A stretch of DNA of 64,000 nucleotides. It comes from Amoebophrya sp. A120 (Eukaryota; Protista; Dinoflagellata). Numbering within the stretch: position 1 is the first letter of the stretch; the number at the start of each line of letters is the position of its first letter. Location of the stretch: contig CAJINV010000001.1 of assembly GCA_905178155.1 (NCBI GenBank), positions 1,305,767 to 1,369,766 of the forward strand. Reading direction: 5' to 3'. The position numbers were made by a program, and so were the translations under genes. Below the pieces are notes generated by a model that worked only from the letters and a program-made list of their open reading frames with translations, was not told where the DNA came from and did no database searches. This document shows, piece after piece, positions 28,354 to 64,000 of the stretch.

Positions 28354-29049
28354 AGTGGCTGGCGGGGTCGTGGTTCTTGCTGCGGTGCTTTGTGCGAGCA
28401 GTGGTCGTCAGCGTGTCTACTGAGAGCGTCGATTGTCACAGAATGTCGATATCAATAGAGAAATTGATGTAGCCTGAAATAGCAATGAATGTAGTCTTAC
28501 GCAAGCCAAATGTTGAATGCGAGAAAGAAACCCTTGTTTCACCTCTTGATTATATTAAGTATAGCGCAATTTGAAATCACTTTCGATACAGTGTAGCACT
28601 GCTACCCACTGCTCTCTTAATGTAAAAAACCAAAAACGCGAATTTTCATCGGAATAGGGAAAGCCCAGAAACGGAAATTGACAGACGGATGTCGCAAGAG
28701 GTGCGTGCACCTGCAAACAGTGTCGTGAGCTTTCGAAAGATGATTTTTACGGTGGTGATTTGCACCGAAGTGAACCTGTATGATATGGAATGCGGCTGGG
28801 CTCCGTGAGATGCCACGAGCTATTTACTTACTTAGTACAAATAGGAACAGGAAGTCCTACGAAGCCGACCGGCCAGTTCCGCCGTTGTCTCTTTTTTAGC
28901 GGCTGAGTAAGTCAGTGTTCGCCTCTACTGGTTGGTCTCAGAAGACCACACGAGAGAGAGCACAAATGTAGGGAATGCAAATGGCCGAGCAATGAGGGCG
29001 CTCGCTGAGGCGCCACAAAAAGAGTCCTAATGTCTAAGTACAGCCAAGC

Positions 29050-30700
29050 GCTCACGGAGTGCCGTGGCTAACTGAATCCAAAGCCTAGCGGGCGTCAGCC
29101 TCTCCTGCTCTCTGCGGGCCCTTTTGGATCGACTGCGCCAAAAGGCTGCAGCTCGTCGGTGTTGCTCTATTGCCTGGGCCGGCGAGGGCGGTCGGCGGCG
29201 TTGCTCTATTGCCGCCCGCTTGGTGGCCGCCCGCTTGGTGGCCGCCCGCCCTCTCGGTCGGCCCGTCGCGGCCGCCGGCGAAGCGAAGAACGGCGCCGCC
29301 GCCGGCGTTTTCCGGTGGGGACCTGATGGGCGGCGGGGCGAGACCGGTGTCGCGGGGGCTCGGGCCGATGTTTGGGCGTTCGGCCCGCCGCTGCCCCTCT
29401 GCCCCTGGCGGGCCCCGTTTCTTTGTCTGCTTCTTGCCGCGGCCGGGGGGGCGGGCGCCCTCGCCCCCAACGGTCGCACGCTCGCCCGCCCATCCTTGTT
29501 GCGCCCCGGCCGGGGGGCCTGCTAGCTAGCTTGCTACGTTCGCCCGGGCCACCGCCGCTCGGTGGCCCCGGGGATCGATGGGAGCCGCCCGGGGGGCGCC
29601 CAGCGGGGTACCGGAGGCGGGGGCGTTGCTTGCAGGCCGCACGGCAAACAGCCCCGCGGGGAAACTCCGAAGCGCCGCAAGGCCGGTAGGGGGGAGGCCA
29701 ATCATGCCAAGGAAGCCTGCAGCCCCGGAGCGCAAGGTTTGCGCCGACCACATGTGCGCGCTGGCTCATTGGGAAGGGCCCGCGGCCGGGCGCCAAAAAG
29801 AAAGCTTCCCAGAGAGAACATGCGCGCCCAGATGTCCCATCCTCTGCGACTACATAGCGGGAAGGCGGGCGCGGTAGGAATAAAAGAAGCCCCCGCAGAG
29901 GTGGAGGCATGTGAAGCGCGGAAGGCAGGGCGGGCCGCGTACTTGTGGCGCGGGCCAGTGCAGTGCTTGGGCGCGTGGGGCTTCTGCCAAGTCGGCAGGC
30001 AGCGTGCGAGCTCAGGCGGGGCTTGGGCCAGCGCCGAATGTTGCCCGCCGCCACAGACAGTTTCCGGGCGGCCCGGCGCGGCGGCTGCATCATCCACATC
30101 TATGGCGAAGCCGGAACCCCCGAGCCAGCCGCTTCGGCTAGGCCATCGATCCCGCAAGAACTTTCAAAGGACGGCGAGCAGTAGCGGGCCTTTGTTTCTT
30201 TTGGGACGGACCTCGCTAGCCAGGCCGGGCGGGCCATGCACCACCCTGGGCCAGCAGTTCGGCCAGGACCTAACCGCGGGCCATCCTTGGATGGCCTGAG
30301 GTTCGCAAGCCATCCAGGTCGGGCGGGCCCCGTCGGCCCGGGTGTTTTCCGTTGTTCCGGTCTCTCTTGCGAAGGAAGGCGCCAGCGGGCGCGCTTTTTG
30401 GTGGTGCATGCCCGGCGACGCATCTCAGCGCACGGCGCGTCTCCGGCCCCAACCTGGGTGGCTGGGCGCTCGCCTTTGCAGGCGGCGGCCCCCTCTTACT
30501 CTGACCTGATTGCGCCTCCCTTGGTCGGCTTCGGCCCGCCGGGCGTCGCGCTCTCTGCCAAGTGGTAAAGCGCGCTCGCAGCACGCGCACCATGCGGGCA
30601 CTTCGTTGCCTGGCTGCGTCCCAAAATGATGGCCGTGTTCGCGGCATATTTTTATTTTCCATTGTTCGCCATCCACCGCCCCTGAGGCGAATGTTCTGCA
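29050..30700. other. Very GC-rich island, probably an inserted non-coding element; boundaries approximate
   Basis: Abrupt compositional shift, short internal repeats (GCCGCCCGCTTGGTG x2, TTGCTCTATTGCC x2) and only low-complexity overlapping ORFs; no convincing TSD or TIR found. Confidence 0.4.
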
Positions 30701-31016
30701 GACAGGCCTGGCGTAGCTAATTAGTAAGTATCGACCCTCTCAAGCGTTACGGCTTCTTTTGCGGAGTGGAGAAGACTAAAGCAACGCGTGTGTTGTCAAC
30801 CGCGATCCCACTTCTCAGAGCCACGCGTTCTTTCCCTACTTCGTCTTCGAGGACGTGAGAATAAGGGGAGAGCGATGGATTGCTTACGCCTTCCTTCCAC
30901 GGGCACAACTCAAGGATCATGCTGAAGCGCATTGCGGTGTTTATTTGCAAAAGCTGGTGTTTTATTTCAGACTGCAAAAGCCTAAGCCTTTGCCTCCCTG
31001 CACAGCAATATCAACC

Positions 31017-43115: not shown

Positions 43116-46100
43116 ATGGCGATCCCTGCCCTGCTCGAGGTTGAGATTCTCGAGGGGTCGGGGTTTAAACACGAGGGCTCGCACATGGTGGAGGCCAGAG
43201 TCGATGGCTTTCCGCCGCAGAGGACCGAGTGGGCGACGGACGATGATTACGCGTTCTTTTCCGGCGGAAGAACCGGAAAACGGTTTCTCAGCAGCGGTCC
43301 CCATGGCTGCATGCAGTTCAACAACGTCGTGTATCTGCAACAGATGGACCGGTTTGTCTACTTCACTTTGATTCACAAACGCATGTTTTCCGACCACAAG
43401 CGGTGTGGCGAGGCGTTCGTGAAGCTAGCCGCGCCCGTCGAGAAGAGCGTGTCGACGGCGAAGCTTTTCACCGTCGCGTTGGAGCACAAAATGCGGTTCG
43501 CTGGGTCGCTACAGGTGCGGATTTCCTACAGCTACCTCTCGCGGAACGGGCAGGCGCCGCGGATCGAGCGCCCGACAGGAGGAGCAGCGTATGCGAGTGC
43601 AAGAACAACTACTACATCCAGAGTCGGAGCATCTACATCAATGGCAGCCCCGCCGCGCGCTGGCACAACTTATGCGCCTCGTGCGGACGGGAGGGTTCTC
43701 TCCGAGGAGGAGGCGACCCGGCGGGAAATCGAGAAGGCTTTGCGCGCGGACGGCGGAGATTTGAGCGCGCAGGCAGCGATGCTGAACCAGTTTGAGCAGC
43801 GGAAGCAAGCCTCCTCGCCCTCCGCCTCCTACCATGCCTCCAGTCCCAGCAGTCATGGTAGGGGCTCGCCGGCGTCCAGCCCCGGAGGCAGTTCGCCCGG
43901 CACCACCAGCCCGGCGATGAGTCCGCAAATGGGAACAAATGTCGAACAAAGAGCCAGGCCACGAGGGCCACCACCGCGTGATGTAGCGGCAAGTGGTCCT
44001 AAGAGCACCTCGTCCTCATCCCGCGTGCACTATGTCCACGAGCCCCCGCCAACGCCACCGGACAGTCCCTTTCGCGGTCCGGGCTTCAGCAGCGCTGGTA
44101 GCTCGCCCGTACCGCCGTCGGCTGGTGGTCGTGTGCAACCGAATGGAAGTAGCCGTCATGATCAGCAGTCCTCTTCGACTTCCGGCCGGCGAGGAGAACC
44201 GCCGCCGAGCAACTATGGCAGCAGCAGTACTAGCAACGCGCACACGAATTATAGTACAACTAGTAGACCACAAGGCGCCACGAGTACAACTTCTAGTGCG
44301 GCAGCAGCTTCTAAAGGCAGACCACCCAACACTGCATCAGCAAGCGCCCCCGCGGGTGCGACGAGGCGCGCGACGGACCCAAGACCCGACCCCCGCCCGA
44401 AGAGCACCGGTGGTGGCCCTACAAGTGCCTCGGCGGGTGCGAAGTCAAATGATAACCATCAATCGCAGCCGCCGCCGAAGTATGAATTGCAAAAGCATCC
44501 GCATCGTACTCAGTAAAGATCGCATGACAAATTGGCTCAGTATGAGAAACGAAATTTGTCACGCGAACTCACCTCAAGAAGGCGATCGAAATTTGTAAAT
44601 GCATGATTGTGATTTTTACGCGATACTTTTGCACAGGATACGAAGAAGAAAGCCGCGCCGCCACCGCCGGAGCCGGAGATTGACCCGGAGGAAGCGATAT
44701 GCACTCCGCAAATATTTATAATGTCGGGGTTTGGAAAGTTCGACTTCGAACTTGTGATGCTGGTCTTACTTTCCTGCGAAATCTGTATTGCATAACAAAA
44801 GCCGCAGCCTCTTTTGTCATGCAAAAACGCACTTTCTGTTTGTGTTTCTCATGCGAGCTGCGTATGCGAAAGCGTTCTCGAGGACGAAAGTGGTCATGCT
44901 TGGCTTCATTCGGAAGCGTTTCCACCATCGTTCACATTTTAGCATCACAAGTATTTCCAGACCGCCCAGATTGATGATTTGCCCTGCATAAGCGAAGCGA
45001 GAAAAAGAGCTGGAGGAGAAGAGGAAGGAGATCAAAATGCAAGCCAGGGCGAGCCAGCTGGCGAAAGTGCGGGCCATGAGCGACACCTCGTCTCCGTCGC
45101 CCGCGACGAAGTCACCGTCACCAGTGTCCCCGGTGCAGCGGCGGGTCATCGTAGAGAAGGTGCGCAGCCCGGACACAGTGGGGGCCGCGTCATCATCGGT
45201 GACCGCAAGCCCGTCCGGGAAAGACGTAAGTAGTCCCGACGTGTCCGCATCTGGCAGTCCCAGCGCTGCGGCCGGGGGTGCGACGACGCCGGCGAAGGCC
45301 GCGTCGAGTATTGATCCGAATATGAAAGCGAGCAGTGCTGGGGTGAACAAGAAAAACAGCGAAGCTGCTGGTGGTGATGGAGCGAAAGAACCGCAACAAC
45401 AGCCCGCACCGGACGACGAAACTGCAACAGGAACAACACATCAATTTAGGTCGGCCGCTTCGAAACAAGCCAGCGCCCCCGCCACGGCTTCATCATCATC
45501 TGGGCTACCAAGAAGTAAAGCGTCAGCTGCGTCCGCCACCACCCCTCCTCCCGCAGTGGTTTCAACGGCACCAGCAACAACTGGTGCTCGCGATCCGTTT
45601 GACTTTGAGGTGCCGAGCGAGAAGGGCGAGCGCTTGCGCAAATTCCTCCATTATCCACGAAAAGAACGTTGTTAGTGTAAATTTGTGATTCGCAACATGC
45701 AAGATGATTGCGTCCGTCATGCTTGGCATCCATTGTAGGGTCCATCAAAGGGCGTTTTCACGACGTACTATCTGCGCATGACAGGTTTTTGCTGTCATGC
45801 CAGACAGATATGCTGTTCCTCCAAAAAAGTTACAATGTTTTTTTTTCTTGGATATCCATACGAAGAGGAACAGTACGAGCACTCGTGGTCCTGTTGCAGG
45901 ACCTGCTGCCAACAATCCCTACAACGACGCAGTTTACGGACACGGGCAGATGATGGCCCCGAAGACAGAACGCTTTATGGAATAGGGAATAGGGAGAGAT
46001 AGGGAGAGTAGGGAGATAGGGAGAGTCCCCCTAAAAGGGGGCAGCAAAAACAAAACCAAACTGATCGCAAACAGCATGGCACGGCCACGACAACATCTTT

Positions 46101-49100
46101 CGAAATCTGGGGTGGAAATGCTTCCGAGTACCCCCCTCCTCGGCGGCTCCTCCCGGGGTCGGGGAGGCGCGGAACCTTCCCTGAGGGGATTTATCCTCTT
46201 GCGGGCCCGTAAGGCTCAGGTCTTGCTCATCAGCTGGCGAAGGCGGAAAGGTAAAGTGGCCATTTCAAATTTCCTTCGATGAGGGAAAGTTGAAGTGGCC
46301 ATTTCAAATTTTCCTCGATGGGGAAAGTTGAAATGGGCAACTCGATTTTCCTTCGATGAGGGAAAGTTGAAGTGGCCACTTCAAATTTCCTTCGATGATT
46401 CAACGGGCGCGCGGTGCTCGTTCGCCTTCGAATCGATGCAACGCGCGCGCGTGCATGAATGCGCGCGCGAAATTTTTTTTGGTTCTACGGCTTACCAAAA
46501 CGGAGCATACCATCGCGATTCAAGGGGAATTAGGTTTACCACGGCTCTCCCTATTGACCTATTCTCCCTATTCCGCTCTCCCTATTCCCTCGATTCACTA
46601 CAGTCATATATACAACAATCCCTACAACGACGCAGTTTACGGACACGGGCAGATGATGGCCCCGAAGACAGACCAAGCAGTTAATCTATATACTATAGGG
46701 GCAAGAAATGTACTTGCTCCTCCCAAAGCTTCTGAAGGTTTGACCTTCTGAAGAGCTTCTGAAGGAAAAAACTTGATTTTCAACCTTCAGAAGGTCAAAA
46801 AAACTGGCCGGCTATTTTTCAGTGTAAAAAGCGCAGCATGAGCTCGCGCAAACGAAATCATCGCTCATTTTTTGCAACCTTCAGAAGGTTCAGTCTTCTG
46901 AAGGTTTTTTTTCACCTTCTGAAGAATTTTTTCGATTTTTTGACAAAAAATTCTTCAGAAGACTAAAAAAACGACTTTTTGAAACCTTCAGAAGGCAGGC
47001 ATTCTTCTGAAGAAGTGCGTTTTATGCCGACGTCCGAAACCTTCAGAAGACTGCCATTTTTTAAACTCAAAAAATGACGCAAAATCAGGACAATCAAAAA
47101 AAACTAAGAAAAACCTTCAGAAGACTAAAATTTCTTCTGAAGGTTTTTCGAAAATTGTCGCACTTTGACAAAAATGAAAAAAATAAAAAAAACACACCTT
47201 CAGAAGACTTTGATTTTTGAGTCTTCTGAAGGTACATCTTCTGAAGAACCTTCAGAAGGTCCAACACAATTTGGTGTTTTTGTTGCGCGCACCCAACTAA
47301 AAACTCGATTTTTTGTAAAAACGTGCGCAAAAAACCTTCAGAAAGATCTTCAGAAGCTTCGGAGCTTTTTCTGTTGCGCCGCCGATTTGTTGTTCGAGCG
47401 CCAAAAGCACTTTACTGCCACCTGTTTTTTCCTAAATGCAAGAAATATTATGAATGGGTCTGTCAAGTATTTCTGTTTTCTTGTTGAGGATTTTTTCCAA
47501 GCGGTGGACGGCAGAACGCAATGAGATCGAAGTTGCTGCTCCGCCTCAAGCTCATTTTTTTTTTGTGCTACGAGTGGATTTACGACATGACGCTACGAGG
47601 AGGACAAGTTTATGGCGGACGCTGCGAGAAGCAGAGATCAGGCGCAAACTGGACAACCAAAACTGAACGAGCACCTCGGCACTCTATCCTTAGGCAATCC
47701 TCAACAACAAACATGAAAATACTTGACGCGCAAATATTTTTTTTCTTTCATAATCGACGGGAAGAGCAAGTACGAGGCTTGCCCCGCGACGCAGTCGCGT
47801 GGATTGGTTCTTACGGACACGGGCAGATGATGGCCCCGAAGACAGACCCAGTTAATTGAAGGACTATAAGGGAAAAAATCAAAACTACCTTCAGAAGAAA
47901 ATTCTTCAGAAGACTCTTCAGAAGAGTCGACGAACCTTCTGAAGGTTCTAAAAAGAGCAGTTCAAAAAACGACCAAAGTTGAAAGGGAGTCAGATCCTGC
48001 GCCGCGAAAATTTATTTTTTTTTGTGAACCTTCAGAAGGTAATTACCTTCAGAAGGTCTGACTTTGACCTTCAGAAGGTTTTTGATCAAAAAAATCTTCT
48101 GAAGGTTTGGCACGCGTTGGCTTTGGACCTTCTTGAAGGTTTTGACCTTCTGAAGGTTAGTTTTTCAAAACCTTCCTGAAGGTTAAAAATGAAAAGGGTC
48201 GCTTTTTTCCAAAAAATGCAAAAAAAAAGGGCCAACCTTTTTTGACCTTCTGAAGGTCGAAAAACCTTCAAGAAGGTCTTCTGAAGGTTGGAGGCTGAAA
48301 ACCTTCTGAAGAATTCTTCTGAAGAAATGTCGGCTCTTCTGAAAGTTTCTTCAGAAGGTTTCTCCTGAAGGTTTGCCGAGCGTTCTCCGCGATGAGAAAC
48401 AAATTGCGCAACGAAAACGCCGCGACAGTGGCGCGAAAAAAGTGCAAAAGTGAAAGCTTTGCCAAAGCGCAACGATTCCGGATCTGATTCTGCAACAAGA
48501 TGCAAAGTGTCTTGTTGCAGAATCAGATCTCCGCTTCACCGGATCCGCAGCAAGGCCAATGCGAGCGATGCTGCCCTGCGTTCATTGACTCTTGCGGGCG
48601 GTACGCCGCCGGAAGCTAGTAAGCTAGGGCGCTCAGTCTCTGGAAGCTAGTAAGGCCAATTTCTCGGCTGGGCCAGGGGTCTGACAAAAGTTGAAGCCAT
48701 CAAAAAGGGCAAAAGGATTCAGGATCTGACTACGTAAAAAAACTGCAACGCTTCGCCTTTCCTGATCTGGTGCGCAGCTTTTTCCTGGGTTCATGAGTTA
48801 CGCCACGAGACGCACCAGGCGAGCTTTTTCCTGGCTTCTTCCTGATCTGACCGGCCCTCTGAAGAGTTGCCAATAAACCCGGCCACTTTTGTAAAGCGAG
48901 ACGCGGCAGCGGCCCTCAAAGATGGGGGCTAGAAGCCGGCCGCCTTTGGCTTTTCCAAATTTGGCCACCCTGAGAGAAACCAGACGGGGCTACTTTATTA
49001 GGGGCGAAAAAGATTTTTTCAAGACAGACACAGAATGTGACAGAGATGCGGGCCAATCTTAGTTCTATTCTGAAGAGTTGTCGCATTTTTTCCCACGCGG

Positions 49101-52076
49101 CGCACGCCGCGTGGATTGGTTCTTACGGACACGGGCAGATGATGGCCCCGAAGACAGACCAAGAGTCCTTCTCTTCCAGTTCCTCGGGCGGATCCCCGTT
49201 TTCGCGCGTACCCGGCCCTGGCTTTGCGTACTCTCCGTTTTCGTCCACACTGCCGCCGGAGGGCCGCGTGGGAATAATCAATGCAGCTACCGGGGGAACC
49301 GGAACAAGTAGGGGCTATAATAATCTTCACACCGCCCCGCGACCGCCGGTAAACTACATGTCCTCGAAAGAGCACGTTGTGCAGCCTCCGCTTTACGGCT
49401 ATGGAAATCTTCATGCCGATGCCGGGCCCGGGGGCGGTTCTTTTCAACAAGCGCCACATCAAGGGCAACATATTTACAACTTGCAGCCCGAAGATCATGT
49501 TGACACTTCTGTGTATAATCATCATTCTGGCCGCCCACCAGCAGCAGAAATTGCCGACTCGCAAGTAGAGCGGCCAGGAGCTGCTGCGACGGCGACAGGG
49601 GCGCACGGACCGTTCTACAACCCGCCGGGTGTCGTGGGTCGAGTGGCAGGACAAGAGAGGTTCTTTAATGGGAACATGAACAACATCAACGCGCAAAATG
49701 ATTATACCAGCGACAACTACGGACACGCACGACATCCTCCTGCAGGGGTACCGAATTTGATTCCGTCTGGCGCCACCTCCGCGACGAATTTTTCCTCGCA
49801 CTACTCGCAGGGAGGTTTGTCGTCCTTCGTGATGCCAGCAGACCCATACGCCGGTCCACCGTGGGCCCCCGCTCCATCGCAGTTTTTGTCCTTGCACGGC
49901 CCGGGGTTCGTGGCGCAGGGAGACCTTCCCACGAGTGCGCTCCATTTTGATCATATTCCCGCTTCGCACCAACACCAAGCCGGGAGGGGAAGGGCCGCGG
50001 CCCAACCAATGTCGGTGAAGATCTTTCCTGGTCAAGAACTACATGCTCCTGCTGCAGCTCCTCCAACAAGCGAGACGATCGTTCCAAGAACGATCGTGGA
50101 GCAACGAGAGCCGAACCAGACGGCCTCTAGAAGTACTACAGTTGTGCGGAAAGATTTGGAGATCAAGCCGAAGCGACTTTGGAACGACGATGATCCCTGG
50201 ACGTCGAGTGTGATCCTCAGTGAAGATGAGGAGGACGAAAGAGCCGCTCAAAAGTTCCTCGGCCCCTCTGGACAGTTACAGTTGTCCGGAAAGAACAACT
50301 CTGCGGGACTACAGTGGGAAAGTTTCCTCGGTCGCATCAACGACGACAGCAGCGACGGGGAGGCACACTGGCTGGACGACGAGGTGGAAGATTTTGTTGG
50401 AACAAAACCCCTATATGCCACCACCAACCAGGAGACGCAAATAGAGACAGCCCTGCAGGTAGCGAAGCCGGGTACTGCGGGTCGTGCACTGCGGCTCAAT
50501 CTGGGTAGTAGTCGTTCCGCAAATAACGACGCGACTTCCACGCTGCCTGGAAAGAGCCGAAACCCATTTGCGGAAGTTGTAGAGCTGCCCGGGGGCAGCT
50601 CGAGCTTGCTAAGTAGTGGAGGAGGGCGGGGCAGTAGTACAACGACCGAGATGATGATGAATTCTGTGGCAGTAGAGGACACGACGTCAAGAGGACATTA
50701 TCATCGTCATCATCATCATCGTCTTTCTAGCGGACAGCAGACGACTTTTGAAGACTTGAAGATTCAAGTTCAGGAGATTCTGAATGCAGTAGCGGTCGTG
50801 AACAGAACAAGCAGTACTTCTGGTTCATTTGGGAAGATGCCGCGACAAACCGAGACCACGACGCCAAAAATTGCTGACCACGACGTCCACAGTAGAGGCC
50901 AACAAAATAGTATTAAACTGCCTTCCACGAAGATGAAAGAACTACAAGCCCCTGCAGCTCATGTGCTCTCCGGCACTGATCTGCACCTGTCCTTGAGCAT
51001 CCGACAGCAAATGACTTTCTACGACGAAGACCACGCGCGCAGGCCCGCCCTCTGGTTCGATCCCGACCGCGAACAGAAACTGAAGCTCGCCGCGGAAAGC
51101 GAACGGCAGAAACGGTTTGCGACGTTGCTGCGCAGTGTGACTCTGGATCAACAGGCCGCGCCGAGCGTCGACGTGCAGGCGGTGCTGCGGGAGCATAAAG
51201 AAGGAGCAGTCTTGGTTGTGAAGACTGATGCTACAAAGGAAATAATTAAAACCGCTACTTGTAGTTCTACCGCCGAGTTGATGTTGAATACAAACAGTAC
51301 TAGCGGGAGGTCCTGCGGCTTCAGCGGGGGAAAAATCCTGAATGGGGACGTCGAAAACAGTTCAAATTCTTCTATCCTATGTAGAAACGTCCGCACCCCA
51401 GAGTCAAGATGGGGAATCGGCTAGACAAATCGACAAGTTTTGGCTGTTTTGCATGACAAATTTGGACTCGTAGTGTAGTGCTGTTGGAGGTAGTTCAGCA
51501 GCATAACAGATCTAGTATACCATTCTGATTGGAGCATGACAAATTCCAAAACACGAATAGAAAACGCTTCTCTATGGGGCTCTGCATGAGAAACATTCTC
51601 AGCATGCAGATTTGCATTACAACTGTGGGATGGGGACGTTTTTAAATACGATATCTTCGTCCCCTTCGTCAGGAGATCTACTCTGGATGAACGGGGAAAA
51701 GAACGACCCGAAAAAAATAAATGGTGCGACCATTCTTAGTTCATCTTCTTCATCATCCTCCGCTTCCAGAACTGTGGAGGAACAGATGGCTTCACCACCC
51801 CCACCGCCACCACTGGAGAAAGGAGTAAATGAAAAGACAGCTGTATACAGTGCAAAAGTGTATCGTCTTCGTCCGAGGAAGTATCTATGTTGAATCGCAT
51901 GACAAATTTTCTCACAAAGAAAATTGGTAGTTGTCATGCATGGCTAGTGCTATTGGCATTGGTACGAGCAGTTGTACGATATTATCTGTTGCAATGCATA
52001 AGCTGCTGACTCTGGCGAGGTGAAGGCTCCCGTGAACGCGGGTTTTTCAGAACTGTTGCAGTTCGCAGCATCCTGA
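43116..52076 (+). CDS. Protein with an N-terminal C2-like domain and a long low-complexity tail, interrupted by five introners and three long-duplication inserts
   Basis: C2-like pattern LLEVEILEGSGF..MQFNN..VYFTLIHKRMFSDHKRCGEAFVKL..AGSLQVRISY. ORFs 43116, 45037, 49037 and 51612 join in one frame (..KFLH|TKRN..NNPYNDAVYGHGQMMAPKTDQESF..) when all inserts are removed. Confidence 0.7.
44481..44640. mobile_element. Introner family E
   Basis: Family E ends; TSD CGAAG. Confidence 0.9.
44698..44990. mobile_element. Introner family A (degenerate)
   Basis: TATGCA...TGCATA with decayed family A TIRs; TSD AGCGA. Confidence 0.85.
45652..45854. mobile_element. Introner family J
   Basis: TATCCACGAAAAGAAC...TTTTTCTTGGATA; TSD TCCAT; inverted relative of 58449-58657. 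Confidence 0.9.
45970..46612. mobile_element. 643-bp insert flanked by a 60-bp exact direct repeat
   Basis: 45910-45969 = 46613-46672; subterminal (ATAGGGAG)n versus (CTCCCTAT)n inverted arrays. Confidence 0.8.
46245..46396. repeat. Four tandem ~39-bp palindromic units
   Basis: Unit GAGGGAAAGTTGAAGTGGCCA(T/C)TTCAAATTTCCTTCGAT with core palindrome TTGAAGTGGCCACTTCAA. Confidence 0.85.
46678..47810. mobile_element. 1133-bp CTTCWGAAG-rich insert with long target duplication
   Basis: Starts CAGTTAAT, ends hairpin+ATTGGTTC; duplication 46637-46677 recurs at 47811-47848 (38 bp) and 49123-49163 (41 bp). Confidence 0.8.
47849..49122. mobile_element. 1274-bp CTTCWGAAG-rich insert, same termini as 46678-47810
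   Basis: Starts CAGTTAAT, ends CGCGTGGATTGGTTC; 38-bp duplication 47811-47848 = 49123-49160. Confidence 0.8.
51373..51653. mobile_element. Introner family C
   Basis: Family C ends; TSD TCTTC. Confidence 0.88.
51844..52000. mobile_element. Introner family E (degenerate)
   Basis: TATACAGTGCAAAAG...TTGCAATGCATA; TSD AGCTG. Confidence 0.85.
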
Positions 52077-52853
52077 AGATCATGCGTGTGAAGGATCATC
52101 GTATGCGCGTTTTATACTAACCGCATCTAGCTATTTCTAGGAGTAGCATGCTGGCATGCGACAGACGACGAACATACTAGGTTATTTTTCACGACCATGG
52201 ATATTACAAGAAGATAAAAGAGAAACACACGGTGGAGGTCCTCGCAGCACTACACAAAGAGCGCGCGTTTTTGAGTTGATGTTGATGCTTTACCTAGTTG
52301 TCAAACGACTAGCATGAAGATTTTTCATGGCAAGAAGCATGTTTCAAAGGATCTTGTTTTGCTCAACAGATTTTGATGTAGTTAAAGCAAAAATATAGAC
52401 GTAGTGTTCGCGCAAAAAACTTCTGTGTCGTTCAACTCGTGACCACCGCATGGTTGGAAGAAAGTGCAAGTCGTGTGAATTATGGTGTCAGACAAAGCTG
52501 TGTACCAATAGAATGGAGCATGATGAAACAAGTAGAACAATGACGATGTGAGGACAAATAGAGACTGCTGCGGCGTTTCAACCTGAACTGCTCAAGAACT
52601 GGAGCAGGTAATTTCTACCACCTACACGTTGTAGAGCACTGAAGATAGAGTGCGAAAAGAACTTCAGAATTTGTGTAGAAGTAAAAATTCCAGTATCACC
52701 AGTATCTGTATCAGTAGGTGAAAATAAGCAAAGGAAGTTGTAAGTAGCATAGCGCATGAATATGAAAATTGTGTGTTTACAACGTCGACCACGATAGACA
52801 ATTTTCATATCTGTCGTTTGATCTTGTACTTGAAGCGACAACAAATAGACAAA

Positions 52854-55800
52854 ATGTTTGTGAATCCGTTGAGTGGTGTCGCCATGGGCGGAATGGGAGG
52901 AGGTGGCATGTTCGGAGCGGCCCTCCCAGCTGCCTCGCCAAACGGAGACGGTACCGGGGTTTATGTTGATAGTACAGAGGTGGACGCAGTAGAGGCACGG
53001 CTGGGCCACACGTGATCATGAAACAGGAGGGCCAGATACAGATTGAAGTTGGTACGACCTTGCGCAATATAAAAAAAGCCATGATCAAATACAAGCGTTC
53101 TTTGATTCGAATTCAGGTACTCCGGGCGGCGGCGCCTCTCCGTTCGGCGTCGGTATCATGAGAAAAAAGTGTTACAGATACACATTTGTTGGAGTTTCTG
53201 CATCACAAATTTTCTCTTAATGGCAGAGTAAACATGTAATGCGAAGATCATAAGGGAAAACAAGAAGGAAACGAGGTTCCCAAGCATTTCCTGCATGAAA
53301 AAGGTTGTCTGTGTTGCCGGTCTTGCATGACAATGCGTAACTGTAACACTTTTTTCTTGCGATAGTCGGGGGCATGATGCCACTGTCCCAGAGCTCTGCT
53401 GCTGGCGGCAATATCAAATGTAAAAATGTCTGGGTCTGGAAGAATGCAACTTGTGATGCTACATTTGGATTCCAAAAAAATCTGTATTGCATGAGTAGCA
53501 AAGGGAGTGCAATTTCTGCTACGCTGAGAAGACATTTGTCATGCGGAATAGGCATCAAGAAGCCCTCAGGAAATCTGTATTGCTAGGGTATGCATCACAG
53601 ACATCAGGGCTAATGCAAAACGTGCATGACAAGTGTCAGAATCTTCCAGACCCAGACATTTTTACAGTTGATAGGCAACGCGCCCAGGCAAAAAAACTTC
53701 GCACTTCCTGTCACAATCAAGGCACTGAAAAACGGGGAGCGAGGTAAATGAATGTGATGAATTATTTTTCTAGGGGAACTTTCACTTAAATATTTCAATG
53801 TGTAAAATAAAGTGAATCTGAATTATGTGTTGGAGTGTCTGCGTTTTTGCTTCAATGTTTTTCCTTACCTTTCATCGAGCAAGGAATCAATATGCACGTC
53901 GCGGCGTGAGAGGGAGCAGCAGAAATTGAATTCATACGAAACTACTACAGTTGATGACAAAGAGTACAAAGTGTACGGCGTCGTGAACGCCAAATCAGTG
54001 ATGCTGGTGGCCCAAATCGTTACGCTGAAGCGTGTATCCTGAGTAAGAACGTCCCGACCCCATAGTAAAGATGGGAAATCTGCTAGACAAATCAACAAGC
54101 CGTGGTAGTTGTTGCGCATGACAAATTTAAGCTAGTGCAGTGTAGTCGTGTTGAGCTAGTGCAGCAGCATCGCAGAGCTTCTTGCGCGTCGTGCTGATTC
54201 GAGCACCACAAAGCTCAAGACACCACTAGAAATAAACGCTTCTCAGCATGGGTCTCGTCCGCATGAGAAACGCTTTGAGCATGCAGATTTTCATGACAAC
54301 TCTGCGGTGGGGACGTTTTTACTCCGGATAGCGTGGCGGCCAAATGACGGAGATGGTGCTCGATGACTCAACGGACTATGAAATGTAAAAATGTCTAGGC
54401 CTGGAAGATTGCAACTTGTGATGCTGCATTTGGATTCCAAAAAAATCTGTATTGCATGAGCAGCAATGGGAATGTAATTCTTGCTACGCGGCGAGGGCAT
54501 CGGCTTCGGCATTTGTCATGCGGATAGGCATCAAGAAGCCCTCAAAAAATCTGTTATGCTATGGCATGCATCACAGATATCATGGCTCATGCAAAACGTG
54601 CATGACAAGTCTCAGAATCTTCCAGACCCAGACTTTTTTACATTTGATACGGACACAATAACGGCAACATGGTACTTACTACAGTGTTGCGAATGCTGCG
54701 TTTCTTGTCAACATTGCAATAGGAATTATGTACTTCTAAATATGTTCAATTAATAGATACTTTCTGGCTTTTTCTTGTTTGTGTTTTATTTAGTGACGAC
54801 CTAATATGACATCAAACACGAACTTGTTTTTCTTAAGGTTCGGGCAACCCGCAGACTATTCGGTAATCGGCGATATTATATCCCCAAAAAAAAAAACTGT
54901 TACTGTAACTGGCATCCGTCTTAAACAGGAACCGTTGCAGAGGACTTAGCATTCCGCTCCCTACTAGGAAAAGCTGCGACTTGATGTCAGAAGCATTGAA
55001 CAAAGAGAAGATCTTTCCCCTCCTTGCATCTGTTTGTAGATGTTCTTGAGCATGACAAAACATCAAGACGTTCATTCTCAGAGATGAAGTTCCGCGAGGA
55101 CACAAGTTGAGCCTGTAGCAGTTTCAATATTTTCAGTCGATAGATTAAGGAGAAAATGTACATTCGAGTGGCTTGCTCGCTGCGCACAAGAAATATCGAA
55201 TGCAAAGATGTCAACTTCTTGGTCTGCACGATGGATTTTTGTGCAGCGTTTCGATCTTCACGTAGATGGTCCGGATTGTACGCAAAAGCATTTCAATTTT
55301 TGCCTTTATTGCGCAAGCCTCTTGATGCCTGAATTGCAATTGCATGAGAATAAATTCGATATTTGGGTTGCAAGAGATGGGCAGCAACTTCTGGCGCCGC
55401 GCATGCAACACAAATAATTCATTTTGCGTGATTCAGTTCGTGCATCACAAGTTTGCATCCACTTACTTTACAGACCCAGACTAGTACATATTTGCAATGC
55501 ATAAGGAAGGACGAGGTACAACTTTCTGCACAGCACATCAATGTAGCAAAGGGCGACGACATTGCCCACCACTTTGCTGACGTCGCATACACCGCGTTGA
55601 CCTACATAAAAGGTAAGAATTCATATTTTTAAGTATCTTCATCTAGGCCCTGACCAGTACTTACAACCTCTCCTCCTCCTCCCCGTTCGTCTCGCATCCG
55701 TGAGAATGGAATTCGATACCGATCAGCTCTGGACGAATCGCTTTGATGCTGTGAAGATTTCGGAACAAAACAACTCCAGGTAAAGCTAAATCCGATAGTA

Positions 55801-56505
55801 CCAGCGCGCCCGCTTCGCAGTCGCAGCCGGGACCGAGTCCAACGGCACCCACTGCTGTGCCACCAACCGCAACTGGGGATGTCACCATGACAGACGCAAC
55901 GCCAGCGGCACCCAGCACGGCTGCCGCTCCTAGCACGGCCGTTGCGGCGCCACCACCAGCCGCCCCAACAAAGGAGCTGAAAGCCCTGATGCAAGAGTAT
56001 TATTTTGCATTCAGCATACTCCTTGTTGTTTGTTGTTGTTTTCCGCTTAGCAAGCAGGATGGAACTTCTACTTTATATTTCGTGATGGAACTCGAACTTC
56101 TACAATTTTAATTTTTGGTTCTAATATTCATTAGATTCGAATGAAACAACTTACCATCAGGTGCTTGAAGGCTAAGGGCGAAACGGGTGGAACTTATGCG
56201 GAGGTGGAAGCATACTGCAAATCGCAATACAGTCCCGAATATCCACTGCAAAAGTATCGTACCTTTAGTACTACTAGTCGCATCAACAATGCATGACAAA
56301 TTTGGTTGGCCACCTGAATCTGCATGAAAAAATATCTAGTTCTTGACTGAAAGAATTTGATGATGTCATGCTGATTATACTAGGACGATGCAGTACTTTT
56401 GTAATGCATACCGAGGAAATCAAGAAGCTATGGGAGAATCTCATCGACGAGTGCGACTTGTTTGCAACCATCGACGACGATCACTACAACTTCGGGGATA
56501 TGTAG
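52854..56505 (+). CDS. RPA2: Replication protein A 32-kDa subunit (multi-exon)
   Basis: Gly-rich N-terminus; OB-fold blocks LPVTIKAL, VMLVAQI, MVLDDSTDTITATW, YIRVACSLR, DDIAHHFADV; winged-helix end IKKLWENLIDECDLFATIDDDHY; stop TAG ends at 56505. Start tentative. Confidence 0.85.
53154..53364. mobile_element. Introner family K
   Basis: TATCATGAGAAAAAAGTGTTACAG...CTGTAACACTTTTTTCTTGCGATA; TSD GTCGG. Confidence 0.9.
53412..53673. mobile_element. Introner family A
   Basis: Family A TIRs; TSD GGCAA. Confidence 0.92.
54035..54330. mobile_element. Introner family C
   Basis: Family C ends; TSD GCGTG. Confidence 0.9.
54377..54649. mobile_element. Introner family A
   Basis: Family A TIRs; TSD CGGAC. 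Confidence 0.92.
55194..55503. mobile_element. Introner family A (degenerate)
   Basis: TATCGAATGCAAAGATGTC...TTTGCAATGCATA; TSD AGAAA/AGGAA. Confidence 0.82.
56240..56410. mobile_element. Introner family E
   Basis: Family E ends; TSD CCGAA/CCGAG. Confidence 0.87.
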
Positions 56506-56512
56506 GGGAGCT

Positions 56513-56771
56513 TATGGATTGTAAAAATGTCTGGGTCTGGAAGGTTGGAACTTGTAATGCTAGCTTTCCATACCTAGAAAATCTGTATTGCGTCACTAAC
56601 AAAAGGAAAAGTCGCAGCCTCCTTTGTCATGCAAAAACGCAGTTTCTCATGCGGATTGCCTATGAGAAAGCGTTTTGGGAAGTTGTCATGCCGGACTGCA
56701 TTCGGAAGTGTTTTTATTATGCACATTGCAGCATCACAAGTTTCCAGACCCAGACACTTTTGCATTTCATA
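56513..56771. mobile_element. Introner family A in the RPA2 3' UTR
   Basis: Family A TIRs; TSD GAGCT; 7 nt separate it from the stop codon. Confidence 0.9.
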
Positions 56772-57805
56772 GAGCTACAGCTAAAGCAATTTACCGCGGT
56801 CGGGGAGCTGCAGCTAAAGGAGCAACTACTACGTCGCATTTGGTCAATGAGCAGGTTCACAGACAGGAATCAATTGTTTATGTCACAAAGAATTTGTGTC
56901 ATCAAGAAGGAATCAAATTCTCACTCGCACAGATACGCATTCCTGAATTTATCTTACCCGACATTGGTGAGCAGGGCCGAGATCGTTGCGGATTTATTTC
57001 GGGTTGCGTTCTTCGTGTGTGTGACTCTGAGTGTGTGTGAGAGTGTGTGCTTAGTTACCACGACAAGAATAGCTGACCGGTGTTGTTACGTTACGAGAGA
57101 AGCGACTATTTATTTATTCAGGGTCCTCGTCGAGCAGCTTCATTCCCTGCTTCTTGTCGTTTTTCGTTTACGTATTTACGAAAGCGATGAGTGTGCGGCA
57201 CACTACTTAGTACGAAACTGATCTATCGTGCGGATGTTGAGGAATGGATAAGAATTGTTTCGGCCAAGAAGATGCGGGTCCACCCGGTCGGGGAAAGCAA
57301 AGATGACCCAAGAACACAAGATCCGAGCAGGCCTGATTTCCCGTCTCCAAACCTGACTCCGGCAAGCAAACCGCGGGCAACATGAGCCCTTGTCTACACG
57401 TACTTTCGCTTTTTGTGCCGCTTTTCTGGCAAAACCAGACACACAAGACGATTATGCCTCTCTACAACTGTCATTGCATATTCATTGCTTCGGTCAGACC
57501 CTGTAGTTTACAGTATCAGTCTCTGTGAACGATTGCTTCGAAGTGCATCAACGGCTTCAAAAAACAGGTACGGTGACCAATTTTTCGGTGACTCGCTCTC
57601 AACCGCGAAACAACTAAAAAGCGGCTACTAGGGCTACAGCTACAACATCCTACGACTCCATATCCAAGTTCTTTGTTCTGGTGGCCGGTGCCGGCTGCTA
57701 CCTTAAGAACTTATGTCGCGGGGATATTAATCCTCGTACTGCATAACTTCTACCAGCAACCTCGTCCTCCTGAATCAACAGCACTCCTCTCCGCGCAAAA
57801 ATAAA

Positions 57806-60800
57806 ATGCGAGTCAATAAAGCGAGAAGTTCTTTCTGCTCCGTGGTCCTGGTGGTGTCTGGTGGCGGAAATTTATTTTCCAACACAGGATGGTGCATAGT
57901 GAAGAACCTTGTGCACAGCAAGAAGCAGCAGCAAAACCAAAACCGCATCTTCGTGGTGGACCACGAGGCTGCTTTGTCGACAAGTCGTGACGCCGAAACG
58001 AGCGAAAATATCGTCCAGAAAAACGCGTCTACTCCAGAGTTGTCATGCAGATTTGCACTTACAGGAAAAATGGAGTGGAACGCCTGCAGTGCGCACCCCA
58101 TGAGAGGCATTTTTTCCATGTCGTTATCGTCTAGTTTCAGCATTTGTAAATAAAATACCGGAAGTGAAGTCTTCACTGTGAAGAGCAAGTGGATATATAT
58201 AGGATTTATGATAAAAATAAAATATGGCTTTGTGAAGATGCGTCTGTCCCTGCCAAACTGCACTGCAATACAGAATACACAGGAATAAACCGCCCCGCGT
58301 GAGGACAACTCCCAAAACTTCTGTTGCTGAATTTCCAACTCAACTCTGGGGTGCGAGCGACGTAGTTCTTACACAGGATAGAAAGTAACGCGGATCAAGT
58401 ACTAGAAGACGCGTTTTCTCCAGCAGCGAGTGAATTGGAGCAACAAGCTATCCAAGAAAAAAATATTGTAGGTGTAACTTTTTTGGAGGAACAGCATTAC
58501 AAATTTGTCTGGCATGACAGCAAAAACGTGTCATGCGCAAATAGTACGTGAAAACGCCCTTTCATGGGCCCTACGATGCATGCCAAGCATGACAGACGCA
58601 ATTATCTTGCATGTTGCGCATCACAAATTTACACCAACAGCGTTTTTTTCTTGGATGCAAGCTGTCGGCGAGCAAGGACAGGTGGTGCCGGCCACGTTCG
58701 ACGAGACAAAACAATGGATGCAGTACAACTACTACAAACAGTATCTTCCCGTCGAGGAAAATTATCCGCAAGACTTCTACTCTGCAAGAAGACCAACCAC
58801 GGCGGAGCTACTCGACTTCTTATGCATTGCAAATAAACGAAATAATCGCCATCTTCGTACTAAAAGTATTGCATTTTAAGTACAGACATACAATCTTTTA
58901 CTTTTTTAGCAGGAAAAACAAAACTTGTAAATGAATGCGGACTTGTTCTTACCTTAGGAAGCAATGGATACCTACGTCATTATCATGCAGAGCTGCAATT
59001 AGTACGACGAGTGCGATTTGCTTTTGCAGTGGATGCGTCTCCTGTAGCGGCAATGTCACCGACATCTCCACCCCGTCCTTCGTCGTTCCCCCGTGGAAAA
59101 TACTGGTCCAGCACAGTTTGAGGCTGCAAGGGCTGGTGGACAATCTGGATGCGTTCGTCCACACGGAGATCGGAAAAAGTAACCTGGACCAGCAAAGCGA
59201 GACGCTGGCGTTGTTACTTCCGGAGAGATGGGGCCTGACCGCGTACGATGCCGATCTAGCGCTGCGCACGCGACGAGTGACCGGGCGCTGGGCCCCTTTT
59301 TTGAAAAACCTTTACTGCCCACCTGGTCGGTTGCAAGCGTTCCAAGACCGCGATCGCAATCAGGACTTGTTGCTGGACAAGGCGGAGCAGGTCGAGTGGG
59401 GGTGCCCCGTTTCGGCGGACACCAACAAGGATGGGTTTCTGGACGGTATCGAATGGGGGCAGCACTGCGACTATCAAATGTAAAAATGTCTGGGTCTGGA
59501 AGAATGCAACTTGTCATGCTGTCTCTGCATTCTAAAAAAATCTGTATTGCACGACCAGCAAGAAGGGTCCAGTTTGTGCTACATGGAGAGGGTATTTCTC
59601 ATGCGGGATAGGCATCAGAAAGCCCGCTAAAAATCTGTGATGCCAGGCGATGCATTACAGACGTCATATGTCATGTAAAATCTGCATGACAAGTCTGGCA
59701 CTCTTCCAGACCCAGACATTTTTACATTTGATAGCGACCGGGAAAACGAAATAAAGGGAAGTGGGCCAGCGAAGGACCACGACGTTGCTGCAATAGAGAA
59801 CAAAAAACAGCCACCCCAAACAACAAGCACCTGCCAACATAAAGAGCGCGCATCCTCCTCCGACGACACCCACCATCCTCCTCCCGGACCTTCCTTCCAT
59901 CCTCCTCCCCGGCCTTTCCTCCTCCCGCCGGAACCTTCCATCCTCCTCCCGGCCCTCCCATCCTCCTCCCGGACCACCCATCCTCCTCCCCGGCCTTTGG
60001 TCCTCCCTCCGGAACCTTCCAGCCTCCTCCCGGATCCCCCATCCTCCTCCCCGGCCTTTGGTCCTCCCGTCGGAGACTTCCATCCTTCTCCCGGACCTCC
60101 CAGCCTCCTCCGGGGCCCTCGCTCAATCCTCCTCCGAGGCCGCTCATCCTCCTCCCCACCCACCCTTCCATCCTTCTCGGGGACCTTCCATCTATCTTCC
60201 TCCCGGGCCTTCCTTCCTCCTCCGGGACCCCCTTCCTCCTCCCAGACCTGCGATCCTCCTCCGCTGCCTTCCATCCTCCTCCGGGGCCTTCCATCCTCCT
60301 CCCGGACCTCCTATCCTCCTCCGGGTCCGTCCATCCTTCTCTCGGGCCTCCCATCCTCTTCCGGGGCCTCCCATCCTCCTCCCCGGGGCCTTCCATCCTC
60401 CCCGGGGCGGGCACACGCGGGGGAGGTCGGAGGGGGGGCTGGAGGAGGAGGCCGGAGGACAGGAGGGGGAGGTCGGAGGACAGGAGGAAGAGGTCGGAGG
60501 ACAGGAGGAGGAGGTCGGAGGACAGGAGGAGGAGGGCGGAGGACAGGAGGAGGAGGTCGGAGGACAGGAGGAGGAGGTCGGAGGACAGGAGGAGGAGGTC
60601 GGAGGACAGGAGGAGAAGGTCGGAGGACAGGAGGAGGAGGCTGGAGGACAGGAGGAGGAGGTCGGAGGACAGGAGGTGGAGGTCGGGGGACGAAAGGAGG
60701 GAGCTCGGAGGGCCGGGCCAGGAGGTCAGAGGACGGGGCCAGGAGGTCGGAGGACCGGGCCAGGAGGTCGGAGTGGGGCCGCCGGGCGGCTCCGGTCCTG

Positions 60801-63800
60801 AAGTGGGGCCTCAGGCGGGCGCCTTGCGCAACCGCTAGACCTTCCCGGCAGTGCTGCGTCCGGGTTGGCTGCTCCCCCATGCGAAGCAATATAATGCCCA
60901 CGCCACACTACGCCCACACGACAGGCGCCAAAGGCGCACTTGGGGCTTGCGGTGGTTAACCACGGTGGGACGTTCCCGCTCTCGCCTGATAGTTGTTGGC
61001 TTCATTGCTTTTGTCTCGCTTTTTCCTGTAGTTGTTTCTGTTGGCAGTTGCTATCTAGTGGGGCTGTGTTCTCGGTGTTCGATTGCTAGTAAAGGGAAGT
61101 GGGCCAGCGAAGGACCACGACGTTGCTGCAACTACTCACCAGAAGGAAATTGTAGCAGATACTTCGCGAATTTAAGCAGATCCAAAAGTTGCCGCTTTTT
61201 ATCATTTTATTTGGCATTGTGAGGACGAAGGTCAAGCCTTGGTCGTCAAGGTAGCAGGTCCAGGTGGCACTCCCCATGACGTCCTGGCTGCATGCTGGAG
61301 AAGCTTACCGCTGAATCCGCTTGCGCGAGGGTTACGCACTCGCTTGGGCCGATAGGGATATTAGAGAGGGCGACTGAGAAGGGCGGTCGGCCCCTCCAGC
61401 CAACAAAATTCGGCATTGCTGCCCCAGTTGCCCTCTGACCTGCTTCTAGTATTTTTGTTGGAGCAGGCGCATTCTTTAGCCTCACCATGATGGTGCTCCA
61501 TCTTCATTTTTGCGCTATGCAGCCTCACCTCGTGCGCCTGCGTTGCCTTGCCCCTGTTTTACGATGTGGCGTCGCGTTTTCAGTCTTTACGGCACATTCG
61601 TAGAGGCACACGCGGCCGCTCGGAAGCAAAGCAGCCCGCCGCGACGTTTTTACTCGCGCGCGCCAAAGGTTTCGGCGCAGGGGTGTTGCGCGTTTCATAG
61701 GGTGGCCGGGAATAAAAAAAAAACAGCTGGCGGCCGCGGCGCGGAGCCACTGCACGAGACGCGGCGCCACTTCGCGAAAGCATTAAAAGCGAACAAATGT
61801 TCCGCGCGCAGGTCGCGGAAACAATTCGCAAAGCCAATAAGTTAGGCCCTCCGTGTGGAGGGTTGAGTGAAACTGTCGTGCTTCGTTGGACAGGAAAGCT
61901 CGGCTTCTTCTTGCGTCGCTAGCGGCCCACAAAGAAACCGGCCCCTCCGCCCGGAGGGGGCGGCTTCTTTAGGACCCGGAGGTTCCGAAAGTGCCAACTT
62001 TCGTTGTTTTCTGGGTAAAAGGTAGCGGTCCGGCTATCAAACAAACCGCCCCCTCCGCGCGGAGGGGTCTGTTTCTTTCTGGGCCGCCAGCGGCGGGCGA
62101 AGAAACCGAAAATAAGAAATCGACCCCTCCGCGCGGAGGGGTCGATTTCTTATTTTCGGCGCGCGCCGAAGAATTTGATTGAGGCGCGCCACGTTTCGCC
62201 CTACATTTTTTCGTTGTGTTGTTTCTGGAAAATCAAAACTCATGGTCACGCGGCAACTTTTTGCCCCTGGCGGTGTAGGGGTCGACCTTCGTTGGATGGA
62301 GTTAACTCTGCAGTAGTGGCGCCCGGTTTTCTTACAAGCAGCCGGCCGCCTTGTGCGATGGATCGGCGACGCACTCTCCCCTGCCCTCGCCAAGGCAGCC
62401 GCAGCTTCTCTGGCGCCGGGCAATCTGCTTAAATTATTGAAGTATCTGCTTCTACTACCTGATACACAGGGGAAGTGGGCCAGCGAAGGACCACGACGTT
62501 GCTGCAACTATACCGGGAAGTTCTATTGCAAATAAGCGGCAATGCCGCAAAGTCCTGCGAAATCCATGCNAGTGGGCCAGCGAAGGACCACGACGTTGCT
62601 GCAACTATACCGGGAAGTTCTATTGCAAATAAGCGGCAATGCCGCAAAGTCCTGCGAAATCCATGCCCCGCGAACTTGCGCCTCTGTTGGCCTGGGACAG
62701 AGCGGAAAATATTTACTACAAAGGGCCGCCGCAGCACTGTGAGTGCATTTGGGGAGCAGGGCCTCGGTATTTGGAGAGGAGAAGTCCTTTCCTTTGTAAG
62801 CTGACCGCCTTTCACTACGCACCATAGCCAAAAGCTGGCAGCTGCAAAGTCGAAACCGCTCGCGAAAGCGCTGCGAAAGAGGCAAGACCAAGAAAGGCCA
62901 CAAGTAAGTAGGAAAGGCCATGGGCCACCCCAGTAGCCCTGCCAAGCAAGAGGCTGCGCCCGTCGCAACGTCCTTCCGCCAACGAGTTTCCGGACCGGGC
63001 TACCTAGCGGCCGCCGTGTCGCCCTAGCTTTATTTCGGCCGTTTTAGGTGCATGGGAGTCCTACACTATTTTTTTAAAACTGTCCTTGTCCTACACTCAG
63101 GGATCCTACTTATACTCACGGCTCGAGACCTTAGACCCAGCCTCTCCTGCGCTCCGGCGCGCGTGTTGTCGCACACGCGCTGCGTGACAGGGCGACGCGG
63201 TGGGCCGGGGGCTGGCGCGACGTTCCGTTGCATGTCGAACACGCGCTGCGTGACACGGCGAGGCGGTCGCTGGCCCGGGATGGGGGCGACGTTCCGTTGC
63301 ATATCTTGGATTCTAGATTTAAATAAAAACAACCTATTCCGGGGGGGAGGTTGTTTTTATGTGTGGAGAAATTTAGAATCACGGCCACAGTGCAAGATCC
63401 TGAATTTCGTCGCACATAAAAACGACCTATGCCCGGGAATAGGTTGATCTTTTGCAAATCTAGAATCCAGGATATGGGAGAGGTTGATTTGATTGCTCCG
63501 AAATTTTCGCAGACACAGAGTCAACCTTTTGGAAGCAGAGGTTGATTTTATGGTCGCGAAATTTCCGGAGGCATAGAATCGACCTCCTGGAAGCAGAGGC
63601 TGATTCTATGGCCACGAAGTTTTATTTTCTACAGCCATTGGCTGGAGAAGACGCGGCCCAAAATGCGCATGCTTTGCCAATTTTAGTTCAGGCCCTATGC
63701 CAGATTAAGGAAGCGCAATGGACGAGACCGGGATTTCCGCAAAGAAAGCAGGATTGCCGCTTATTTCAGTATAGAGAGTGGGCCAGCGAAGGACCACGAC

Positions 63801-64000
63801 GTTGCTGCAACTATACCGGGAAGTTCTATTGCTTCACAGGCTACACCAAATACCACTGCTACACGCGGGAGCCGTCGTGATTATGATGTGAACTACGACG
63901 AGAACACCGACAGCGGTTTATCCTGAAGAAAAACATGCCCACCCCATAGGTGTCATGCAAATCCGCAAGCCTAAAATCAAATGTCTCTCATGATGATGAT
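57806..64000 (+). CDS. 3'-truncated multi-exon gene with an EF-hand motif, interrupted by introners and three long-duplication inserts
   Basis: In-frame joins across 58009, 58449, 58821 and 59472; canonical EF-hand loop DTNKDGFLDGIE; reading continues CDRENEIKGSGPAKDHDVAATIPGSSIASQATPNT.. when the inserts at 59794-63776 are removed. Confidence 0.65.
58009..58380. mobile_element. Introner family C (degenerate, enlarged)
   Basis: TATCG..CCAGAGTTGTCATGC...AACTCTGGGGTG..CAGGATA; TSD GAAAA/GAAAG. Confidence 0.8.
58449..58657. mobile_element. Introner family J
   Basis: TATCCAAGAAAAAAA...TTTTTTTCTTGGATG; TSD CAAGC. Confidence 0.88.
58821..59035. mobile_element. Introner family E (degenerate)
   Basis: TATGCATTGCAAA...TTTTGCAGTGGATG; TSD CTTCT/CGTCT. 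Confidence 0.8.
59472..59733. mobile_element. Introner family A
   Basis: Perfect family A TIR; TSD GCGAC. Confidence 0.93.
59794..61089. mobile_element. 1296-bp foldback-like insert flanked by a 42-bp exact direct repeat
   Basis: 59752-59793 = 61090-61131; imperfect inverted ends; CCTCCT tract followed by GGAGGA tract. Confidence 0.8.
60455..60690 (+). repeat. 21-bp minisatellite GGAGGACAGGAGGAGGAGGTC (~11 units)
   Basis: Directly visible tandem repeat. Confidence 0.9.
61135..62469. mobile_element. 1335-bp insert flanked by a 41-bp exact direct repeat
   Basis: 61094-61134 = 62470-62510; 28-bp subterminal inverted repeat (61154-61181 / 62423-62450, 25/28 match), each 19 nt from an end. Confidence 0.82.
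62627..63776. mobile_element. 1150-bp insert flanked by a 56-bp exact direct repeat
   Basis: 62571-62626 = 63777-63832; inverted repeat AAATAAGCGGCAAT at 62627-62640 / 63753-63766; internal foldback at about 63300-63476. Confidence 0.78.
63919..64000. mobile_element. Left part of a family C-like introner, truncated by the window edge
   Basis: TATCCTGAAGAAAAACATGCCCACCCC..TGTCATGCAAAT. Confidence 0.7.

Follow-up and report, generated by a model that had tools for sequence, protein, structure and literature searches.

Stacked inverted-end inserts with long target duplications in an exon of Amoebophrya sp. A120: a likely variant of introner insertion

Introduction

How do three unrelated inserts of more than a kilobase come to lie side by side in one exon, each between exact copies of the same few dozen coding bases, and what becomes of them in the message? 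The question is raised by a locus of Amoebophrya sp. A120 that we analysed within a 64,000-nucleotide stretch of contig CAJINV010000001.1 (hereafter the window). Introners of Amoebophrya A25 and A120 are characterized by inverted repeats and by direct repeats of 3-5 nt (3-8 nt surveyed), one copy of which is spliced out, and introns longer than 1000 bp were excluded from that analysis, as set out in the relevant sections of PMC7789003.

Structure of the stack

Sequence comparison places four copies of one target segment on the forward strand, at 59752..59793 (target positions 1-42), 61090..61134 (1-45), 62470..62529 (5-64) and 63777..63917, the last running from position 9 through the remainder of the exon and backed by RNA-like contigs and a protein match. 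Between them lie E1 (59794..61089; 1296 bp, 66% GC), E2 (61135..62469; 1335 bp, three internal palindromes) and E3 (62530..63776; 1247 bp as assembled, internal 58-bp repeats and an 81-bp hairpin), each with imperfect inverted ends. The interior of E1 has a C-rich 20-nt tandem arm opposite a G-rich 21-nt tandem arm. The initial annotation of this stack, which will be referred to as array 2, had proposed copies starting at 59752, 61090, 62470 and 63777 with duplicated spans of 1-42, 5-45 and 9-64, all of which we confirm; the segments flanking E1, E2 and E3 are exact duplicates, of 42, 41 and 56 bp, respectively. Joining the exon without its inserts does give an open frame, as had been claimed, and the product corresponds to residues 285-340 of the public protein P0002, while retention of E1 in the message would stop the frame near 60957. 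The right ends of all three inserts are AG on the sense strand (chance 0.0003, post hoc), which tests nothing because many donors would permit in-frame removal.

That every insert has its own inverted ends was also borne out, imperfect as these are: 1/500, 0/500 and 0/500 base-shuffles match the scores of E1, E2 and E3, respectively, and own ends pair with scores of 26-41 as against 10-14 for cross-element pairs. The inserts are indeed unrelated in that blastn finds no likeness of E1, E2 and E3 to one another, nor to the rest of the 64-kb window outside the target copies. Searched against Pfam, 38 window frames gave no relevant match (0/38) and no partner enzyme, transposase included, and among insert frames the one match (1/38) was low-complexity and sub-threshold. 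Rfam returned 24 matches over 44000-64000, none at gathering score, E2 had no match in phage records, and inspection of the right ends revealed a poly-A or simple-repeat 3' tail on none of the inserts.

Four of the 11 listed sequencing runs were examined, of which X1 looks like DNA (all 30 bins covered), X3 and X5 are RNA by guess, and X9 is uninformative for the array (139 reads, all partial fits, with depth confined to 3 of 30 bins near a common introner). E1 contigs have depths of 42.9 and 44.5 in X1, equal to those of contigs from other loci (39.8-62.6, median 42, for the 12 listed of 17), which is single-copy depth, and E1 is therefore not a rare allele. Bin depths in X1 rise to 232-600 over E2 and 110-299 over E3, indicative of multi-copy repeat families, and the suggestion that the inserts are captured cargo is accordingly not supported. 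A relative of E2 in X3 gives a match that extends to 61130 on the left and ends exactly at 62469, which fixes the right end of E2 at that position.

The assembly has an N at 62570 between identical 96-bp copies (62474-62569 and 62571-62666). We consider the N and the exact repeat that follows it (62570..62666) a likely artefact of a scaffold join that repeated 96 bp, in which case the true length of E3 would be ~1150 bp; a fifth target copy at 62571 originates from the same join. The join repeat (62474-62666) starts exactly at target position 9, which is the right-junction position of E3, and judging by the sequence this start might reflect E3 units arranged in tandem or as circles instead of a chance break.

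Inserts with long duplications (38-60 bp) number seven in the 64 kb and are grouped 3+3+1. The proposal of an insertion hotspot is upheld by this grouping, as even one triple within 25 nt occurred in just 33 of 2,000,000 uniform simulations, a post hoc comparison.

A sister stack and its protein

The other triple, array 1, is a sister stack on the forward strand 13 kb upstream of array 2 (45910..49163; sequence and public protein P0003). It comprises Ea (45970-46612), Eb (46678-47810) and Ec (47849-49122). The target is duplicated over 60, 41 and 38 bp, respectively, and each insert has inverted ends whose score was reached by 0/500 shuffles. Eb and Ec are related, having identical first 8 and last 15 bases, a right junction in common and a GC-rich hairpin close to that junction. 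The initial annotation had attributed both arrays to the same process, which holds for their anatomy, namely the long duplications and inverted ends, and finds no support as regards the capture of cargo.

One public protein, P0003, covers the array-1 gene, maps exactly on 43116-52073 and contains the motif YGHGQMMAPKT four times. It is reproduced by exactly one donor-acceptor pair per insert (45975-46614, 46681-47809 and 47852-49121), none of them GT-AG, such that the inserts are removed alone and both target copies stay, which lengthens the message by 63, 45 and 42 nt and the protein by 21, 15 and 14 amino acids. In the other five introns of this gene the element is removed together with one 5-6 bp repeat. 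The four peptide copies suggest that each insert is its own non-canonical intron and that the duplications are kept as in-frame mini-exons, and on the basis of this gene model array 1 is quite probably spliced insert by insert. Annotation of A120 was based on transcript alignments according to the part of PMC7789003 that describes it, so the model probably reflects RNA. Splicing guided by paired stems, as had been envisaged, thus receives support at array 1 through P0003, with the qualification that the duplications remain and the original exon is not restored.

The geometry of array 1 requires that Eb preceded Ec and that Ec entered exactly at the Eb right end. Any insertion order fits array 2, where, from left to right, each entry lies 4 nt from the preceding right end. 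Growth of the arrays in one direction, with each element placed beside the last right end (an offset of 4 nt at both steps of array 2 and of 0 nt from Eb to Ec), would accommodate these distances and strikes us as a rather unlikely rule.

The seventh insert with a long duplication is a single one of 761 bp (24679-25525), which has an exact 43-bp duplication and inverted ends that are not significant (63/500 shuffles). A 28-bp repeat at 16202/17370 was considered as a further long duplication and rejected, being an introner end.

Transcripts and a probable second copy of the exon

The host exon upstream of array 2 (59040..59466, forward strand) matches two public Amoebophrya sp. A120 proteins, P0001 and P0002, at 99% and starts a 203-aa block common to both, which begins at 59040 and passes the array-free junction once. 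The first exons of P0002 are at 57806-58819 and those of P0001 lie outside the window; RNA-like contigs exit the window at 63917, indicating that the array-2 exon is internal. Both proteins have K where the window has Q (59460), and a codon run matching the K-version of the block is absent from the 64-kb window. With the exon downstream of the array as query, P0001 and P0002 were the only proteins recovered, hence no annotated protein with a repeated array-2 target. Among metagenome contigs, P0002 gave 149 pattern matches of which none was confirmed, and Pfam assigned no family to P0001, P0002 or P0003. Two public gene models that are neighbours but differ in their N-termini both contain the exon block 59040-63917, and two or three copies may exist.

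The upstream exon is followed by an introner of the ordinary kind (59467..59733), 260 bp long with inverted repeats and a 5-bp direct repeat, which is missing from one DNA-like and both RNA-like contigs. The DNA-like contig is one of two X1 flank contigs, with depths of 67.5 and 70.1 or ~1.6x single copy, a ratio that repeats may inflate. It contains 25 words not in the window and retains two neighbouring introns, indicating that a second, emptier version of the exon exists in DNA. A second gene copy is the likely explanation, the alternatives being DNA-level loss of the introner or polymorphism.

Among the contigs listed for X3 and X5, one in each joins 59759 to 63777 without introner or array, and depth in these runs is 0 in all six E3 bins and 0-2.2 on E1. 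Both contigs have a synonymous change at 59297 that is absent from the window and from the X1 contig. Since neither the RNA contigs nor the two proteins agree with the window at these positions, we lean towards the array-free RNA deriving from the second exon copy, with array 2 sitting in a spare duplicate. The upstream exon of the window is itself transcribed (depth about 8), which counts against a spare duplicate, and short-read contigs drop minor forms. All words of the array-free form are already in the window (0/154 absent), so such contigs cannot order the inserts.

The same contigs might instead record splicing of the window's own transcript, with the whole 4-kb array removed and one target copy left. 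In addition to the near absence of depth on E1 and E3 and the transcribed upstream exon, this reading can draw on a GA..AG register within the repeat and on P0002, which links the window's 5' exons to the array-free block. It is nevertheless unlikely given that the RNA contigs and both proteins bear letters not in the window, that an introner-free version of the site is present in DNA, and that the array 1 model removes inserts singly rather than en bloc. The earlier expectation that array 2 itself is spliced is therefore not supported, as the array-free RNA carries what are likely the letters of another exon copy.

Origin of the inserts

We give about an even chance to an explanation of the locus as a whole in which three hairpin-ended non-coding inserts were placed serially by target-primed copy-in, in what is likely a spare exon copy. 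An enzyme encoded elsewhere would act in trans, its first nick setting the right end of the insert and the second junction falling 36-56 bp off, perhaps aided by a few shared bases, whereupon fill-in would yield the target duplication. Either the target copies now present or the end of the insert already in place might then attract the next insertion. In a host gene on which the cell depends, array 1 being the example, pairing between the ends would likely allow non-canonical splicing of the insert alone, and the retained duplication would become a mini-exon extending a peptide repeat. CRE/SLACS are among the non-LTR retrotransposons with long duplications and repeated use of a site.

Our preferred, still tentative candidate for the enzyme is the reverse transcriptase/endonuclease of such a non-LTR element. 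The part of PMC7789003 that covers mobile elements reports autonomous non-LTR elements in A120 and no transposase, and long variable target duplications (R9, 126 bp; Dualen, over 50 bp) together with repeated site use are described in excerpts of PMC9977147. The seven inserts have long and variable duplications of this kind (38-60 bp), but differ from non-LTR elements in the lack of an ORF and a 3' tail, in their inverted ends and in the presence of unrelated inserts at one site. Tail-less inserts argue against copy-in, as do the fixed ends of Eb and Ec, which would suit DNA elements, and the TIR DNA element is the class of most A120 introner families in the family data of PMC12130899. Microhomology at the left ends is weak, that of E1 being equalled by 14/586 and 113/584 exon windows and that of E3 by 8/586 and 27/584, and E2 has none (431/586).

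The inserts could alternatively be non-autonomous DNA transposons, mobilized by a transposase whose cuts are staggered over long and variable distances, or else joined correctly at one end and through repair at the other. This possibility, which we regard as doubtful, would account for the inverted ends, the internal repeats and the common fixed ends of Eb and Ec, whose duplications are 41 and 38 bp. Bacterial IS1202-group elements combine inverted ends with 16-28 bp duplications (PMC10132070, in part), and duplications of 111-250 bp are occasional at retroviral insertions (PMC5488345, in part). Against it, A120 is without a reported transposase in the account cited above, the ends are degenerate and unlike between inserts, and duplications in the catalogued A120 TIR families are 2-11 bp (58/58 rows); the short duplication of fixed length that marks TIR DNA transposons (MITE/foldback) is not found around the array inserts.

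Less probable than DNA transposons is a rolling-circle (HUH) source, of either the Helentron/HINE or the Replitron type, that would make non-canonical duplications. The inserts resemble HINE, DINE-1 and HLE2 in subterminal inverted repeats and central tandem repeats, as these elements are described in portions of PMC4067079 and PMC11417382, and Eb and Ec further have a GC-rich right-end hairpin followed by TT, as in HINEs (PMC4067079). According to the section of PMC10288648 concerned, the duplications of Replitron-1 and of some Helitrons in Chlamydomonas are variable, and the entry of Ec exactly at the Eb right end would also be in keeping with this mode. However, E1, E2 and E3 lack the right-end hairpin (fold energies -12.2, -4.6 and -8.0, compared with -18.6 and -19.9 for Eb and Ec) and are followed by TA, GG and AG rather than TT. 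HINEs, moreover, leave their target unduplicated in the same portion of PMC4067079, so that the unmodified TT target of Helentrons and HINEs is not what is seen here.

An assembly artefact in which one-insert alleles were concatenated has little to recommend it beyond the N join within E3 and the fact that short-read contigs do not give the insert order. E1 is at single-copy depth, the similarly built array 1 is mirrored by a four-copy protein with junction-specific residues, and long duplications would persist even with merged alleles; the array 2 stack is very probably real DNA.

CRISPR acquisition duplicates a few dozen bases at each insertion and builds a repeat-insert array, but array 2, to which such acquisition had been likened, shares only this geometry and is not a CRISPR-like system, its repeats being shifting 41-56 bp coding segments, its inserts of kilobase size and cas-like genes absent from Pfam matches in the 47 frames and proteins scanned.

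Relationship to known introners

The array inserts are similar to Amoebophrya introners as portrayed in PMC7789003 in that they are non-coding, have inverted ends (inverted repeats being found at both ends of E1-E3), insert in exons, include repeat families (E2 and E3 by read depth, with E1 single-copy) and, in the array 1 model, have non-GT-AG junctions near the stem. They are unlike them in having repeats of 38-60 bp (41-56 bp in array 2, instead of 3-5 nt), in keeping both copies according to the array 1 model, and in occurring three to a site. The A120 introner families of Gozashti et al. 2025 have duplications of 2-11 bp or none in all 58 A120 rows of the data concerned (PMC12130899), which also include families of ~1.1-1.2 kb with short inverted ends (fam103, fam135); that scan may have been blind to long duplications. 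Gain or loss of amino acids is ascribed to some introners in the same source. Repeats are 4-8 nt in the relevant part of the Polarella preprint, and the passages of PMC8557442 available to us give no duplication lengths for Chlamys. In mainly the open literature, covered for most papers at the level of listings, there was no account of introners that are stacked or that make long duplications.

These comparisons point to a likely introner variant with duplications ~10x the catalogued length, reuse of one site and a likely role in building peptide repeats. It is about equally balanced whether some introners form a class whose entry duplicates 38-60 bp of exon, which revisits its site and is spliced alone, so that every insertion brings an intron and an in-frame peptide repeat. 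If so, mobile elements would be driving the formation of tandem protein repeats and of new mini-exons. Known introners conceal their insertion, since the splice takes the element and one short duplication; the long duplication codes for 14-21 residues and seems to be kept at array 1, tying intron gain to growth of a protein repeat. This would offer a candidate explanation for two features reported in Amoebophrya, rapid protein change and varied junctions. The significance of the locus rests largely on the array-1 protein P0003 rather than on array 2.

The P0003 junctions are free of sliding ambiguity and would therefore pin the splice sites relative to the stem; U1 was not detected in Amoebophrya in the pertinent section of PMC7789003. 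Three unrelated elements at one site point to a targeting rule, and array 2 provides a warning that, for a duplicated exon, RNA lacking the inserts does not establish splicing.

Other features of the window

A GC-rich block at 29000-30720 (up to 66%) has no long flanking repeat and no Pfam match in its 7 frames. At 11103-15650, some 4.4 kb of inserted sequence apparently interrupts an introner of an MCM gene; the insert has an internal repeat spaced by 453 bp, and Pfam matches were obtained in 0/11 frames. Introns of 260 bp with inverted repeats and 5-bp direct repeats abound in the window, as known for Amoebophrya from the introner sections of PMC7789003. One such 260-bp family has at least 15 copies, mostly 70-92% alike and in both orientations, including those at 169-431, 2537-2799, 26385-26647 and 53411-53673.
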